Below the pieces are notes generated by a model. It was not told the DNA's origin, made no database searches, and was given only the letters and a program-made list of their open reading frames with translations. The position numbers and the translations under genes are program-made. A DNA stretch of 64,000 nucleotides from an uncultured Thermoleophilia bacterium (GTDB lineage: Bacteria > Actinomycetota > Thermoleophilia > UBA2241): positions 22,707-86,706 of the forward strand of contig CAWBRS010000002.1 of the NCBI GenBank assembly GCA_963791345.1. The letters are read 5' to 3'. Shown here piece by piece: positions 17,021 to 49,168 of the stretch (positions within the stretch are counted from its first letter, which is position 1; each line of letters begins with the position of its first letter).

Positions 17021-17100
17021 GCTACTCCGCGGCGGAGACCGCGAAGGTGCTCTGCTCGCGGCGGAGACCGTGGGGGTGCTACTCCGCGGCGGAGACCGCG
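17021..17100. repeat. Three ~28-bp tandem units duplicating the 3' end of the adjacent gene
   Basis: GCTACTCCGCGGCGGAGACCGCG at 17021 and 17078; degenerate copy at about 17049. Confidence 0.7.
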
Positions 17101-17971
17101 GCCGCGTCGAGCGGCCCGCAGTCGAGCGTCCAGTCGTCGGTCGGCGTCGTGTGCAGCGAGAGACTGCAGGACGAGCGGTCGGCGGCGAGCTCGTAGCTGA
17201 AGTCGCCGACCGCGTCCGACTGGGTCATGGGGCCGTGGTTCCAGGGGTTGCTCGGCCACAGGGCGCCGTCGCGCAGAGCCCCGACGCCGCCTTCGCGCGA
17301 CACCTGGGAGGCGGGAGGGTAGAGGCCGTCGTGCCGCCGGGCCCACTCGATCACGTACTGGCGGATCAGCGAGAGCCCTTCCTGCTCGCGATGGCGGTAC
17401 GCCAGCCGGCCCGAGCCGGGCATCGAGCCCCTCACCTCGAACTCGCCGTCGGGCAGGTGGCCGACCAGGCGATAGCTCCGGCGGTCGGCCGCCACGGTGT
17501 AGGTGTAGCGGCCCGGAGATGTGCCGGGGCGCATGGCTTTGCCGGTCCACGGGTCCGCCGGCCAGAGCGGCGCGTGGAGCCCGCCGCTCTTGCGCACCAT
17601 GTCGGCCGCGGGGTAGCTGTAGTAGCGCTCCAGGGCGTAGGTCTCGATGTAGCCCTGCAGGAGCAGCAGGCGCTCCCGCATCGAGTCGCTCCTCGGTGAC
17701 GACGGCCGGCCTCGCCGAGGGGTCGAGGCTCGGCTCGGGCTCGCCGGACGGCCCGGCCGGTGCCTTCCGGGCTCGGCGCGGCGCTCCCGGCGGCGCCCGG
17801 CTCATCCCCGCCGCAGCCGCTCGCCGTCACGGCGATCAGCAGCCCGGCGACCAGCAGGAGGCCGGCGGCGAGGAGTCGTGCCCGGCGGCCCGCGCGCCGC
17901 GGCGCACCACGCGACGCGTCGCTCCTGCGCGGCGGCGCCAGACCTCGCCGGGCGGCCGTGCTGCGCTGCAT
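17079..17971 (-). CDS. Lipoprotein with two tandem pilin/GspG-like globular domains; frameshifted
   Basis: Lipobox ASGC; two repeats of YP...LWPxxPWxxxxM....G.Y.Y...AD. Confidence 0.6.
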
Positions 17972-18248: not shown

Positions 18249-19635
18249 GTGGAGCCGAGGATCCCGACCCGCATGGGCGACGGGTTCATGGTCGAGAGGA
18301 CCCGTAGCGAGCTGCGCGCCGACATCGAGGCGGCGACGGCCGAGGCGGCGCGCAAGGCGAAGTGCCCGCCGCTCGCCGCCGGCGAGCTCGACCACCTGCT
18401 CGACATCTACGCCTCGCCCGCGTCGTTCACCGCCGTCGACATCGGCGACCAGGTCGTCCTCTCCTGCGACGGCGGCGGCAGCAAGATGACCGGCACCGAC
18501 CTCCAGGACCTCCTCGAGAGCGAGCAGCGCCTCGGCCAGGACATCCTCGAGCTCTGGCACATCGAGTACAGCTACAAGGCCATCAAGACGATCCTGCCGT
18601 TCCAGCAGCAGCTCATGCAGAACGCCCAACTCATGCTCACCGCGCCGATCCAGTACGGGGCGCAGCCCAACCTGGCCTTCTACTCGAAGCCCGACGGCCC
18701 TGCCGACAACTGGTTCGAGCTGCTGCCGCAGGGCCGCATCGCCGAAGCCAAGGCGGCCATCGAAGAGGCGATGGAGCACGCGACCAAGGACTTCATCTAC
18801 GTGAGCGACGGCATGATGGAGGCCGGCGCCGACGGCATGGACTTCGACACCACCGGCGGCGCCGGCGACGCCGACCTCTTCAGCACGCTGCGCGCGGTGA
18901 AGCACGTGCGCGAGAGGTGGCCGGAGGCGGGCATCGAGGTCGGCATGGCCGGCGAGTTCGTGATCGGCGTGCACGGCGAGCTCGCGTGGGAGGGCCGCCG
19001 GCTCGCCGGCATGTGGCCCAAGGACCAGCTCGAGGTCGCCCAGGACGCGGGGGCGACGCTCTTCGGCCCGGCGGTGAACATCCGCACCTCGAAGAGCTGC
19101 GCCTGGAACGCCGCCTTCTCCCTCACCGTGATGAAGCCGTGCATGGAGGCGGCGCGCATCCCCGTCCATCCCAACGTCGGGCAGGGCGTGTGCGGCGTGC
19201 CGGTCAACGGCTACCCCGGGGAGGACGCCTCGTCGCGGGCGGCCAAGGCCTGCGTCGAGATCCTGCGCTGCGACGGGTTGTAGGTGGGCTCGGGTGACTC
19301 CAGGGGCATGGACGTCACCCACGCGCTCGCCGCCGGCATGGGCGGGATCCGGACGGCCGGAGATCTGGTGGCCCGGATGCAGATGTCGCGGGGCATGCGC
19401 CTGAACGGAGGCGAAGGAGTACGTCGCGGGGAAGCTGGGCTGCGGGGTGCGCGACCTGAGCGACAGCTACGCCATGGAGCAGCTCAGGGGCGAGCTCGGT
19501 CTGGGGAGGATCCTCGACCACTCGAACCTGCACCCCGGCGAGCCGAACGCGATGTACGCCAAGTTCCGTATCGCCGAGCTGCTCGGGCTGCGCATCAACT
19601 CGGTCGAACGATTCAAGGACCTGGCCGGTCTCTGA
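18249..19635 (+). CDS. mtbB: Dimethylamine:corrinoid methyltransferase MtbB homolog with in-frame amber (pyrrolysine) codon at 19281-19283; +1 frameshift near 19408
   Basis: TRMGDG, YGAQPN..YSKPDGP, GADGMDFDTTGGAGDAD, GMAGEF, FGPAVN; DGL-(TAG)-VGSGD corresponds to MtbB DGI-Pyl-IGVGD; homology continues AGMGGIRTAGDLVARMQ...EAKEYVAGKLG...INSV. Confidence 0.9.
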
Positions 19636-19742
19636 CGATACAGGGTTCGGTGGGGCGGCCGGCGGCGGGGGCCACGGTCGCCCCGCCGATCAGCCGCGCA
19701 CCGCCGTTGCGGCGGGCGTGGGGTGGACTGACCGGAGGCCGG

Positions 19743-20161
19743 ATGATGCGCGCGAAGTCGTTCGATCGACGCCGGCCGTGCGCGGTCGCTGCCGGCGGTC
19801 GCGGCGCTGGTCGCGGCGCTCGCCCTCTCCGCCGCCTGCCTCATCTGCGCTTGCGCCGGGGAGGCCGCCGAGCCGGTCACGGCGCCGGTCGACCAGGCGA
19901 AGGATCTCGCGGCGAAGGCCGCCGTGCTGGCGATCGCGACCGGCGTCAAGGCGCACGTCGCGACGTCCGGCGAGGCGCCGGCGGACGCGAGCCAAGCCAC
20001 GCTCGGCGCCTTCGTGAGCCCCTGGCCCGACAACCCCTTCACGGGCGCCCCGATGGCGCCCGGCTCGAACCCCGGCGACTACGTCTACGACGGCGCTCGG
20101 CGACGGGGCCTACGAGCTCTCCGTGTACCTCTCCGACGGGACGCTGTCGCCGGCTCCGTGA
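19743..20161 (+). CDS. Small lipoprotein with pilin/GspG-like domain; frameshifted
   Basis: Hydrophobic Cys-containing leader; AVLAIATGVKAH...WPDNPFTGAPMAPGSNPGDYVY...YELSVYLSDG. Confidence 0.55.
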
Positions 20162-20290
20162 CGGGCACCGCCCGCGGCCGCCTCGGCGGGCGCCGCCCTG
20201 CCGCTGCGTGATCGGCGCCGCCCCGCGGCGCCTCAGCGGCCCCCGCCCTGCCGCTCCGTGATCGCGCCGCTCGCGGCGCCTCAGCGGCGC
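20150..20290. repeat. ~48-bp degenerate tandem repeat (3 units) beginning at gene stop
   Basis: Recurring GCT(C/G)CGTGA...GCCGC...GCGG(C)GCCTC(A/G)GCGG. Confidence 0.5.
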
Positions 20291-20474: not shown

Positions 20475-21899
20475 ATGGACCCCGCCGAGTTCCGCACGCT
20501 GGGCCACGAGCTGGTCGAGTGGATCGCGGCCTACCGCGAGCGCCTCGAGGGACTGCCGGTCATGAGTCGCGTCGAGCCCGGCGAGGTCGCCGCGCAGCTC
20601 CCGGCCGAGCCTCCGCAGCAGGGCGAGGGCCTCGACGACATCGTCGCCGACCTCGAGCGCATCGTGCTGCCGGGGATCACGCACTGGAACCACCCCGGCT
20701 GGTTCGCCTACTTCCCCTCGAACTCCGGACCTCGCCTCGGTGCTCGCCGACCTCGTCGCGTCGGGGCTCGGCCCCCAGGGCATGAGCTGGCAGACGAGCC
20801 CCGCCGCGACCGAGGTCGAGGACGTGGTCATGGACTGGCTGCGGCAGATGATCGGCCTGCCGGAGTCGTTCACCGGCGTGATCCACGACAGCGCCAGCAC
20901 GGCGACCTTCTGCGCTCTGCTCTGCGCGCGCGAGCGCACGACGGGCTTCGGCCAGAACCGCGGCGGCCTGCAGGCCGAGGAGGCGCCGCTCGTCGTCTAC
21001 GCCTCGGACCAGGCGCACAGCTCGATCCCCAAGGCGGCGCTGCTCGCCGGCTTCGGCGCCGAGCACCTGCGCCTGGTCCCGACCGACGACGAGCACGCGC
21101 TGCGCGTCGACCTGCTCGAGGAGGCGGTCGCGGAGGACCGCGCCGCCGGCCGCAGGCCCTGCGCGGTCGTCGCCGCGACCGGGACGACGGCGACGACGGC
21201 GCTCGACCCGGTCGGCCGGGTGGCCGACGTCGCCGAGCGCCACGGCCTCTGGCTGCACGTCGACGCGGCGCTCGCCGGGACGGCGATGATCTGCCCCGAG
21301 TTCCGCTGGATGTGGGAGGGCGTCGAGCGCGCCGACTCGCTCGTCTTCAACCCCCACAAGTGGATGGGCCCGGGCTTCGACCTCTCCGCCTACTACGTGC
21401 GCGACCCCGAGCACCTGGTACGCGTGATGAGCACCGACCCGAGCTACCTGCGCACGGCCCAGGACGGCCGCGTGCGCAACCTGCGCGACTGGGGCATCCC
21501 GCTGGGCCGCCGCTTCCGCGCCCTCAAGCTGTGGTTCGTGATCCGCGAGCACGGCGTCGAGGGCCTGCAGGCGAGGATCCGCAGAGACGTGGCGAACGCG
21601 CAGTGGCTGAAGGAGCAGGTGGACGCCGCCGCGGAGTGGGAGCGCCTCGCCCCCGTGCCGCTGCAGACGGTCTGCCTGCGACACGCACCCGCGGCGCTCG
21701 CCGGCGACGAGGCGGCGCTCGACGCCCACAACCTCGCCATCGTCGACGCCGTGAACCGCGCGGGGGAGAGCTACCTGACGTCGGCGGTGGTCAAGGGGGT
21801 GCGGGCCGTGCGCGTCTCGATCGGCGCCCAGGCGACCGAGCGGCGGCACGTGGAGGCCGTCTGGCGGGCGTTGCGCGAGGCCGCCGCCGGCGCGCTGAG
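20475..21899 (+). CDS. Aromatic-L-amino-acid decarboxylase (group II PLP); frameshift near 20725, end approximate
   Basis: PGITHWNHPGWFAYFP, SPAATEVE, AHSSIPKAA, LHVDAA, FNPHKW, GRRFRALKLW. Confidence 0.9.
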
Positions 21900-27090: not shown

Positions 27091-27207
27091 CATAGGAGCA
27101 AGAGCTGATTGGCCCGGGGCGTAAGATGACGCCGGAAGCGCAGCGAGCCAACAGCTCACGCGCACCACGTTCGGTGGGACGGCTGCATGGTCACGAGCGA
27201 GGATGTG

Positions 27208-28164
27208 ATGGCTCAACAGACAACAATGAAAGCGGTTGCGTGCCCCAAGTACGGGCCGCCGGAGGTGCTCAGACTCGTCGAAGTCCCTGTTCCGTCACCG
27301 ACGCCTGAACAGGTTCGGATTCGAATCCACGCGGCCGGCGTAACGATGAGCGACATCTTCATCCGCTCGGCGCGCGTCACTCCGCTGCTCCAAATCCCGT
27401 TTCGACTCATGATGGGAATCACGAAGCCGCGCGCGCCGGTCGTTGGCTTTGTATTCTCTGGCGTGATCGAACAGATCGGTGCGAGAATCACCCGCTTCAA
27501 ACTCGGTGACGAGGTCTTCTGCACGACCGGCTTCTCGCTCGGCGCGTATGCGGAGTACCGCTGCATGGCGGAAACCGACTCGAGGAACCATGGCTGTTTG
27601 GCGCTCAAGCCCCACAACCTCACCCACGAGGAAGCGACTGCGGCAGCGTATGGTGGATTGCTCGCCCTGCAGTACAGCGACAAGGGCAGCATAGAAGCGG
27701 GTGACGAAGTCCTGATCTACGGCGCCTCCGGTACGTCAGGTACGATCGCTGTTCAATACGCCAAGCACCTGGGTGCGCGCGTCACCGGCGTGTGTGGCCC
27801 TCACAACGTCGATCTCGTCAGATCACTCGGCGCCGACGAGATCATCGACTACACCAAGAGCGATGCCCCGCCCTCGGGCGCGCACTATGATTTCGTGCTG
27901 GACTCGGTCGGCGGTGTGAAGTCCTCTCCACTCAAGAAGGCCGTCAGAAGAGCTCTCAAACCGGGCGGCTCGTACGTCTCGATCGACGACGGCGACATGC
28001 TACTGGAGTCCGCGCGCTTGGATCAGATTCGTGAGCTCGTTGAGAGCAAGGCGATCACGCCGGTCCTCGGTCACACGTTCCCCATCGAGGAGATCGTCGA
28101 AGCGCACCGGTTGGTTGAATCCGGTCACAAACGCGGGGGTGTGGCAGTCACGATCGCGGGGTAG
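27208..28164 (+). CDS. Cassette 5: NAD(P)-dependent medium-chain dehydrogenase/reductase (quinone-reductase-like)
   Basis: YGPPEVL, GAYAEY, VLIYGASGTSG, LGADEIIDY, GHKRGGV; atypical lower-GC codon usage. Confidence 0.88.
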   Translation: MAQQTTMKAVACPKYGPPEVLRLVEVPVPSPTPEQVRIRIHAAGVTMSDIFIRSARVTPLLQIPFRLMMGITKPRAPVVGFVFSGVIEQIGARITRFKLGDEVFCTTGFSLGAYAEYRCMAETDSRNHGCLALKPHNLTHEEATAAAYGGLLALQYSDKGSIEAGDEVLIYGASGTSGTIAVQYAKHLGARVTGVCGPHNVDLVRSLGADEIIDYTKSDAPPSGAHYDFVLDSVGGVKSSPLKKAVRRALKPGGSYVSIDDGDMLLESARLDQIRELVESKAITPVLGHTFPIEEIVEAHRLVESGHKRGGVAVTIAG

Positions 28165-40977: not shown

Positions 40978-41427
40978 CTACACGTCGAGGATCTTCGCCG
41001 CCAGGATCGCGGCGTTGCGGGCACCGTTGATGGCCACGCAGGCGACCGGGACGCCGGGCGGCATCTGCACGATGCTGAGCAGCGAGTCGAGGCCGCCGAG
41101 GTCGCTGGTCTTGATGGGCACGCCGATCACCGGCAGGTTGGTATAGGCGGCCAGCACGCCGGGCAGGGCCGCCGCCTTCCCGGCCCCGCCGATGAGGACC
41201 TTGAGACCGCGCGCCTGGGCCGCCTTCGCATACTCGGCGACCTTGTCCGGCGTGCGGTGCGCGCTCAGCACGCTGACTTCGTAGGCGATGTGGCGCTCGT
41301 CGAGCTCCTTCGCCGCGGCGTCCATCACCTCGCGGTCGCTCTCGCTCCCCATGACGATGCCGACCAGCACGGGGTCCATCCGGATGCCCTGCAGAAGGGC
41401 CTCGACCTCGGTGCTCGTCCTCTCCAC
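40978..41427 (-). CDS. purE: N5-CAIR mutase (start may be ATG 41379)
   Basis: [34 protein letters not shown]. Confidence 0.95.
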
Positions 41428-41495
41428 TTCAGACTCCTCTCATCGACCGGCACGCACTGACGTGCGGCCGGCGCGGACGACGACGGGCGGGGGGC

Positions 41496-47799: not shown

Positions 47800-49168
47800 A
47801 TGGGCCAGGATCGATCGACCGCGAGGGCGGCCGCCCTCGCGCTGCTCGTCGCACTCGCGGCGCTTCTCATGACGCTGCTGCTCGCGCCCGCGGCCGGCGC
47901 GACGACGCCTCCGGGGACGCTTCTCTGGCGCGGTATCTGGAACGCCGACCCCCCCGGGGTGGTGGCCAACGTCCACGTCACCACGGCGCCGACGGGCGAC
48001 ATCTACGTGGCCTGCTCGATCCTGCGTCTCACCCCCGACAAGTACGACGTCGTCGTCGCGCGGTACCGCCCGGACGGCACGCGCGCGTGGGTCCGCTCGT
48101 GGAGCCGGGGGGTCGAGGTCGACGAGTGGGTCGAGGGCGTCGCCGCCGACGCCGACGGTGACCTCGTGGTCTGCGGCTGGTTCGCCGGGGGGCGGGCGGG
48201 TACGCCCGACTGGTTCGTCGTGAAGCTCGACCGCGGCGGCGACCGCCTCTGGGCCAAGACCGTGGCCGGGCTCGCCGGCGGTGACGACCGTGCGCTCGAC
48301 GTGGTCGTCAACGGTGCCGGGCGTATCTACGTCACCGGCTCCGTGGCGAAGAGCGCCGGCGGCAAGGACTGGCGCACGACGAAGCTCGCGCCCAACGGCA
48401 CCACGCTGTGGGCGCGCACCTACGCCGGCCCGGAGGGTCTCGACGACCTGCCGTCGGCGGCGGCCCTCGACGCCGACGGCAACGTGTACGTCACCGGCTT
48501 CGAAGGCACGGTCCTGCAGACGCGGCGCAACGTCGTGACCCTGTCGTACGCGGCGACCGGCACGCGCCGCTGGGCACGCGTCCTCGATGCGGGCCGCGAG
48601 GAGTGGGGCGCCGATGTCGCCGTGCGCCGCAGCGGCGTCGCCGTGGCCGGCCGCACGATCGACGCGGCCGGCGTCGACCGCGACTCGCTGGCGCTGCGCT
48701 ACACGACCTCCGGCGACCTCGTGAGGTGGACCGTCTTCAACGGCCCTGTGGCCGGCGACGACCACTTCGCCGGCGCCGGCATCGACGGCAGCCGGGCGCA
48801 GCGTGTTCGGCGGGTTCATGACGAACGACCTCGTGAACCAGCGCGACGCGGAGCTGCAGTGGCTCGAGGCCGACGGCGACACCGGGCTGCACTGGGGCTG
48901 GGTCGGCGACGCCGCCGGTGACGACCAGGTGACGGACATCCACGTGTCCTACGACGGCACCCTCTGGGCCACGGGCTGGGTCGACACGATGCTGACCGGG
49001 CGCGACGTCATGACCTGCTCGCTCGGCTGGAACGCCGGGTACCGCTGGGACGACCGCTGGGCCACGACGGCCAAGGACGTCGGCGACGACCTCGTCGTCA
49101 CCTCGTCGGCCGTCTACGTCGCCGGGCGTCGCGGCAACGACCTGCTGCTCCTGAAGTACGTGCGGTAG
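47800..49168 (+). CDS. Secreted beta-propeller repeat protein (paralog 3 of 3), frameshifted
   Basis: Collinear with paralog 1; ends LLKYVR. Confidence 0.7.

Follow-up and report, generated by a model that had tools for sequence, protein, structure and literature searches.

A putative pyrrolysine-encoding MtbB-family gene in an uncultured Thermoleophilia bacterium, with a probable consensus frameshift downstream of its in-frame UAG

What is encoded at positions 18,249 to 19,635 of a 64,000-nucleotide stretch of DNA (hereafter the window) from an uncultured soil bacterium of the Thermoleophilia? Profile searches identify 18249-19635 (+) as one gene of the MtbB family, matched by PF09505 (Dimeth_Pyl) and by TIGR02368, the NCBIfam equivalog model for dimethylamine:corrinoid methyltransferase. 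Each model matches the gene in three collinear pieces, and an in-frame TAG takes the place of a single missing profile position. The first piece comprises codons 1-344 (18249..19280, +), in whose frame GC3 is about 0.95-1.0; it is covered by PF09505 positions 4-353 (364.8 bits) and TIGR02368 positions 7-355. The TAG itself, the putative pyrrolysine codon, lies at 19281..19283 (+) and coincides with position 354 of PF09505 and position 356 of TIGR02368. The second piece continues in the same frame through codons 346-386 (19284..19406, +), matching PF09505 positions 355-395 (52.5 bits) and TIGR02368 positions 357-396. The 3′ end of the gene (19408..19635, +) is in the +1 frame, with 75 codons and a TGA stop at 19633-35; here PF09505 positions 411-462 align over 19408-19632 and TIGR02368 resumes at positions 398-463. 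The break between the last two pieces is a single extra base at 19404..19408 (+), visible as a private insertion column at 19406 and as a switch in GC3 phase.

In-frame translation of 18249-19635 gives EILRCDGL*VGSGDSRGMDVTHALAAGMGGIRTAGDLVARMQ, with the TAG at 19281-19283. A preliminary description of the window had reported that the open reading frame ends at this TAG while the likeness to MtbB goes on in frame, and had equated the TAG with the pyrrolysine position of MtbB; the profile flanks meet exactly at the TAG, at the positions given above, and both statements hold. That description also ended the gene at 19635—the right coordinate, reached only in the +1 frame, for the frameshift had been overlooked. 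A plausible GTG start lies at 18249, with a conserved ATG at 18273 as the alternative; the paralogs share the N-terminal start M-E-x-R-I-P-T-R-M-G-D-G. On the three window pieces TIGR02368 yields 272 + 42 + 44 bits, each alone below the equivalog cut-off of 369.1 bits, while an intact, 97%-identical ortholog with the TAG read as a residue reaches 401.2 bits. In a control search with PF09505, Methanosarcina acetivorans was the sole match among 14 named genomes.

A sequence search of the PDB returned no relative of MtbB at E <= 0.01. For the intact ortholog, AlphaFold2 gave a model (pLDDT 78.5, pTM 0.82) that is poor near the pyrrolysine site, with pLDDT < 50 at residues 348-368 and also at residues 91-117, and a Foldseek search of the PDB with this model produced 0 matches at E <= 0.001. 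The top-ranked Foldseek rows were BHMT and other generic TIM-barrel methyltransferases (E 3e-3, TM 0.22-0.26). The predicted model resembles a decorated (beta-alpha)8 barrel, and the Foldseek rows support no more than that.

How widely is the TAG conserved? We assembled an ortholog set of 58 loci from species-representative genomes—nearly all of them Thermoleophilia metagenome-assembled genomes (MAGs), one locus (L062) coming from a palsa MAG—in which 53 loci reach the TAG site. TAG stands at the site in all 53 of these, with adjacent codons varying synonymously, and in 11 of 11 orthologs from congeners. The genome itself holds eight MtbB copies, found as 15 matches: five are intact with one TAG each, and three, including the window copy, are frameshifted. 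In all five intact paralogs the single TAG occupies the same site, within the motif DGL-TAG-[VI]G.GD. The site is also spanned by contigs from three DNA runs, which show no difference there among the rows listed. The recurrence of the same TAG in 5/5 paralogs, 11/11 congeners and 53/53 loci means that its match to the pyrrolysine position is not due to chance.

The region that follows the TAG is conserved no less than the region before it. Among the 34 orthologs that are intact with a match covering residues 1-461 (a set that excludes ten single-frame loci whose matches are slightly shorter or partial), 561 pairwise comparisons gave a median dN/dS of 0.16 after the TAG vs 0.20 before it. Mean column conservation in the same set was 0.931 over the 116 codons after the TAG and 0.916 over the 344 before it. 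As judged from these substitution patterns, the part downstream of the TAG is under purifying selection. Decay beyond the TAG, which the preliminary description had proposed to look for by aligning homologs, is absent.

Does the genome encode the means to read UAG as pyrrolysine? In this 3.13-Mb, 72% GC genome, ARAGORN located a tRNA-Pyl (CUA) gene at C21:701020-701092 (-), and pylB, pylC and pylD lie consecutively 1.5-5 kb from it on the same contig. Against the NCBIfam equivalog models, their products score above the curated cut-offs (PylB 444 vs 348 bits, PylC 321 vs 248, PylD 183 vs 150), as do PylSn (122 vs 51) and PylSc (314 vs 178), which are encoded by separate genes, both on contig C17. 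Every component named for this search in advance—pylS(n/c), pylBCD and tRNA-Pyl(CUA)—is thus in the genome. A B12-binding gene split between frames (C17:116386-116719, +) adjoins pylSc (C17:116880-117605, -). The genome also has a tRNA-Sec(UCA) gene (C16:48125-48222), together with selA (556 vs 268 bits) and selB (305 vs 242 bits) at C16:70564-73193, and appears, from its gene content, to decode both selenocysteine and pyrrolysine.

The trait extends well beyond this one genome. Of 41 related genomes, 25 encode MtbB and 24 encode PylSc. Within the Thermoleophilia family to which the window belongs the proportions were 23/24 for MtbB and 22/24 for PylSc; outside that family each was present in 1/16, in one and the same genome. 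The suggestion that pyrrolysine decoding is unusual for an actinobacterium was therefore overstated, because the trait is family-wide in one Thermoleophilia family and pyrrolysine in Actinobacteria is already in print.

UAG also serves this organism as a stop codon. We chose 1587 coding-like open reading frames by codon-position GC, a rough set that counts the few pyrrolysine sites as ends, and found that 273 of them (17.2%) end in TAG; TGA closes 80.5% and TAA 2.3%. A further stop in the same frame follows at a median of 64 codons after TAG vs 69 after TGA, and there was no excess of back-up stops near the TAG terminators of these 1587 frames and no visible adaptation. In the window, 10 of 49 coding-like frames end in TAG, the internal mtbB TAG being counted among them. 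The TAG-ended neighbors listed earlier are real (purE at 40978-41439(-), and the frames at 48725-49168(+) and 27187-28164(+)), and with 273 of 1587 frames ending in TAG, the premise of ambiguous or conditional decoding—that TAG is still a stop—is sound. Two intact MtbB paralogs, at C10:72468-73865 and C21:350527-351895, have a terminal TAG in addition to the internal pyrrolysine TAG; in these, a single mRNA would carry TAG with both meanings.

Is there an RNA signal that could mark the internal UAG? A PYLIS-like stem-loop 3′ of the UAG was sought in the window clade and the five paralogs, without support. The window clade has an 11-bp hairpin starting 11 nt past the TAG (19292-19320, +), with z scores of -1.6 in a 123-nt segment and -2.3 in a 63-nt segment. 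This hairpin is kept in 12 orthologs only by way of the conserved coding sequence, and its helix showed no two-sided compensatory change. Among the five paralogs we found no common hairpin after the TAG (z -1.15 to +1.0). A second helix, further downstream of the TAG, showed a few two-sided changes.

As assembled, the gene cannot yield a full-length protein, because an extra base at about 19406 puts its last 76 codons in the +1 frame. The window reads AACGGAGG at 19404..19408, where relatives have one base fewer. Past about 19406 the original frame looks non-coding, the family match resumes in the +1 frame, and GC3 changes phase at the insertion site; the +1 frame is open over 19405-19635 with a GC3 of 0.93. 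A TGA of the +1 frame at 19402-04 places the shift downstream of that codon, and fifteen profile positions correspond here to 46 bases, hence exactly one base is extra. In orthologs, a single frame runs through the 3′ part and all that precedes it.

Where does the extra base come from? We aligned the window gene with orthologs from 10 of 12 congeners (88-97% DNA identity). The 11-sequence alignment contains six internal indel columns, each private to one genome. The window genome contributes a single one, at 19406, and the base is absent from the ten congener orthologs. Three other assemblies of 20-30 contigs carry one or two private indels each, elsewhere in the gene; five many-contig and two few-contig assemblies carry none in the alignment. 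One contig from each of runs X1, X2 and X3, which come from three studies and represent related strains (the best public run has 0.40 of the stretch's sampled words), likewise omits one base at 19406. Across the orthologous loci, 9 of 53 are frameshifted (11 events), and the frameshifts fall in 9/35 long-contig records named "contig_N" vs 0/18 other records (Fisher p = 0.02); names of the "contig_N" form presumably mark long-read assemblies. The window genome is rated 77% complete despite consisting of only 21 contigs. Also split between frames in this genome are rpoC, one pterin-binding gene, the B12-binding gene next to pylSc, and the PLP-dependent decarboxylase gene that adjoins mtbB. In rpoC (C21:678900-683020, -), profile positions 1-1071 lie in one frame and positions 1065-1146 in another. 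Contigs of the RNA library X15 match 26 of 30 bins at 90-99% likeness, 19406 not among the positions covered, and are no proof of transcription.

Two features of the gene as assembled, the TAG and the frameshift, could each be taken at face value. If the TAG were a true stop, translation would end after 344 residues, the C-terminal part would be made separately or not at all, and no pyrrolysine would be incorporated. Public gene calls do treat the TAG as an end—most of the best 120 public protein matches are 336-346 residues long, and coverage of the full-length query does not exceed 75% in any of the 120—and many genes of this genome terminate in TAG. The many TAG terminators, with no excess of nearby back-up stops, count, in turn, against the reading of the internal codon as pyrrolysine. 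We nevertheless regard a true stop as very improbable, given that the pyl gene set is complete, that MtbB and PylS co-occur, that the TAG is invariant across all 53 loci while the codons next to it drift, and that the 116 downstream codons stand in frame, lack a start signal of their own and show the low dN/dS reported above. The reading of UAG 19281-83 as pyrrolysine, as the preliminary description had proposed for this MtbB homolog, is supported by these comparisons: the pyl genes are in the genome, the TAG does not vary, and the part downstream is constrained (dN/dS 0.16).

The frameshift is most probably a consensus or assembly error rather than something present in the organism itself: the base is private, runs of related strains are without it, such breaks track assembly type, and rpoC and the decarboxylase gene are split too. 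The window copy might instead be a pseudogene recently inactivated in the source strain. The extra base is, after all, present in the sole assembly of that strain, the loss of one among eight paralogs could be tolerated, and two other MtbB copies in the genome are also broken. We consider this improbable, though, because 97%-identical orthologs and the three runs of related strains lack the base, the gene has no further defects (its +1 frame being open, with the high GC3 noted above), frameshifts sort with the type of assembly (9/35 vs 0/18), and rpoC, which is presumably indispensable, is frameshifted in the same genome. The chance that the ribosome shifts frame here by a programmed +1 event is close to nil. 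Nothing speaks for it except the shift itself; the base is missing in all 10 other orthologs and in the 3 runs, other assemblies carry their private indels at different places, and orthologs without the extra base in practice refute the idea.

Which genes could serve this methyltransferase as partners? The window copy had been described as an orphan that has neither a corrinoid-protein gene nor pyl genes near it in the window, and so it is: all 12 B12-binding matches of the genome fall on contigs other than the window's, and so do the pyl genes, which occupy two contigs. The 12 matches include four MtbC-like proteins; when these four were searched against the 58 ortholog loci, no match occurred within 6 kb of the gene. 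In none of the 58 loci is there a corrinoid, activator or transporter gene beside mtbB. Elsewhere in the genome there are two activators of the RACo/RamA type and several pterin-binding methyltransferases, one of them adjoining a RACo gene. A search for the mtbC, mttB, mtmB and ramA types, recommended in the preliminary description, turned up matches of each kind: 4 MtbC-like proteins, 56 matches to the MttB superfamily (PF06253), 1 MtmB-like gene and the 2 RACo/RamA-type activators. The PF06253 matches include many fragments, and 7 have one in-frame TAG; the MtmB-like gene is without a TAG. Fifty-six MttB-superfamily matches are a very large set for a 3.1-Mb genome, and by this measure of gene content the organism is an amine-demethylation specialist. 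The single URO-D family match (429 bits) looks like hemE.

We conclude, with a good deal of confidence, that the locus encodes a predicted pyrrolysine-containing, vitamin-B12-dependent methyltransferase of the MtbB family and that its frameshift is most likely a consensus error. In the mechanism that we propose, the UAG at 19281-83 would be decoded by tRNA-Pyl(CUA), which would be charged by the split, bacterial-type PylSn and PylSc, with pyrrolysine made by PylBCD. By analogy with its family, the enzyme would use its pyrrolysine to hold and activate a methylated amine, dimethylamine being the default, and would transfer the methyl group to a small corrinoid protein in its Co(I) state. Candidates for this carrier are the four MtbC-like proteins whose genes lie elsewhere in the genome. 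A pterin-binding methyltransferase would pass the methyl group on to tetrahydrofolate, a transfer suggested by the position of one such gene beside an activator gene, as in other bacteria, and an activator of the RACo/RamA type would repair cobalt that has become oxidized.

Is dimethylamine the substrate of this particular copy? The preliminary description had called the gene divergent and had seen in this a hint of a different amine. Distance from canonical MtbB is expressed here in profile scores rather than by direct alignment to methanogen MtbB. On the TIGR02368 scale the window clade reaches 401 bits, which exceeds the equivalog cut-off by just 32 bits, and the five intact paralogs reach 508, 445, 412, 407 and 397 bits. 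Identity of the window clade is 53-59% to four of these paralogs and 44% to the fifth; the nearest (58.9%, C21:553754) has a Pyl-type mttB and a gene for a corrinoid protein next to it. In ten alignment columns, at least 33 of the 34 orthologs share a residue that differs from the one common to all five paralogs. They include a D-to-E change in the motif HI[D/E]YS, present in 34/34 orthologs, and an S-to-F change at position 156, and the fixed changes are mostly conservative (D/E, E/Q, G/A, L/I, M/V). The hint of another substrate is weak: the D-to-E change is fixed throughout the orthogroup, but the clade is no more distant from the model than most of its sister copies, three of which score 397-412 bits.

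The orthogroup may, somewhat doubtfully, have specialized on a methylated amine other than dimethylamine, in which case the eight paralogs would represent a radiation over substrates. Their age (44-59% pairwise identity), the persistence of the orthogroup as a gene of its own at 58 loci, each from a genome at species level, the ten fixed columns (D-to-E in HI[D/E]YS and S-to-F at 156 among them), a TIGR02368 score barely above the equivalog cut-off and the 56 MttB-superfamily matches all point this way. Against it stand the mostly conservative nature of the fixed changes and the equal distance of three other paralogs from the model; moreover, no neighboring gene suggests a substrate, and we found no MtbB structure on which the changed residues could be mapped. 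We offer a wider version of this idea just as tentatively: the eight MtbB paralogs might be pyrrolysine-dependent demethylases for other secondary or tertiary amines, beyond mono-, di- and trimethylamine, that share a few corrinoid carriers. If so, pyrrolysine enzymes would not be confined to mono-, di- and trimethylamine, and the radiation would have taken place in an organism that appears to decode selenocysteine as well and uses UAG as the stop of a sixth of its genes.

The best-known counterpart is the system of Methanosarcina, in which MtbB1-3 and MtbC form a dimethylamine:corrinoid methyltransferase with a UAG-encoded pyrrolysine. The gene described here is like Methanosarcina MtbB in matching the same full-length family models, in having a single in-frame TAG at the pyrrolysine position and in requiring a separate corrinoid protein and an activator. 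Unlike that system, it resides in a bacterial host, has no adjacent mtbC, transporter or pyl genes, and would feed methyl groups probably to tetrahydrofolate rather than to coenzyme M. The MtbB copies of Methanosarcina are near-identical isozymes, whereas the eight paralogs of this genome share 44-59% identity.

In its decoding machinery, by comparison, the genome is of the Bilophila, Acetohalobium and Desulfitobacterium type: PylSn and PylSc are separate, and pylT and pylBCD are present. Passages of one report on Bilophila (PMC7593587) describe a methyltransferase gene that does not adjoin the pyl genes and is cut at its TAG in public data sets, and they state that this organism has no dimethylamine methyltransferase. 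Bacteria of the split-PylS type are described mainly with MttB, while the enzyme here is an MtbB. The pyl genes are also more scattered in our genome, with pylSn and pylSc on one contig and pylBCD and pylT on another, and the host is a high-GC actinobacterium. Pyrrolysine in Actinobacteria has been published before, in at least two papers (PMC9630628, PMC10805028), the former counting PylRS genes in "two Actinobacteria". In the available portions of the Actinobacteria reports we found no description of this orthogroup, of the eight-fold paralogy, of a full pyl set or of stop-codon usage; such genes may be listed in their supplementary tables. The present analysis adds the frameshift with its probable artefactual origin, an orthogroup that stands alone and is conserved, and figures on the use of stop codons; that Actinobacteria decode pyrrolysine was known.

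These observations bear on how such genomes are read. Gene finders cut genes of this kind at the TAG, as public gene calls do here, so methylamine use by soil and sediment actinobacteria is undercounted. Breaks in long-contig metagenome assemblies call for a comparison with relatives before a pseudogene or a recoding event is named. Two questions are raised by the genome as a whole: why does one family keep eight diverged MtbB copies, and how does UAG act both as a sense codon and as a frequent stop?

The immediate surroundings of the gene have features of their own. The adjacent genes encode members of an unassigned secreted-protein family, a PLP-dependent decarboxylase and an HtrA-type protease, none of them a methyl-transfer partner. 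The decarboxylase gene (PF00282; 20370-22000, +) follows mtbB only in the closest relatives; it is split near 20720-20745, with profile positions 1-51 in one frame and 55-373 in another, which is probably the same assembly noise. The secreted-protein genes flank mtbB at 17079-17681 (-) and about 19720-20211 (+). A Pfam search with the flanking secreted proteins gave no match at E <= 0.01. In 50 of the 58 loci, mtbB is flanked by paralogous genes of this kind (160 open reading frames, about three per locus), whose products share the motif W-P-x-[ND]-P-[WF]-[TS]-G-x-P-M ... G-x-[YF]-T-Y. This motif is tentatively reminiscent of type II secretion pseudopilins.
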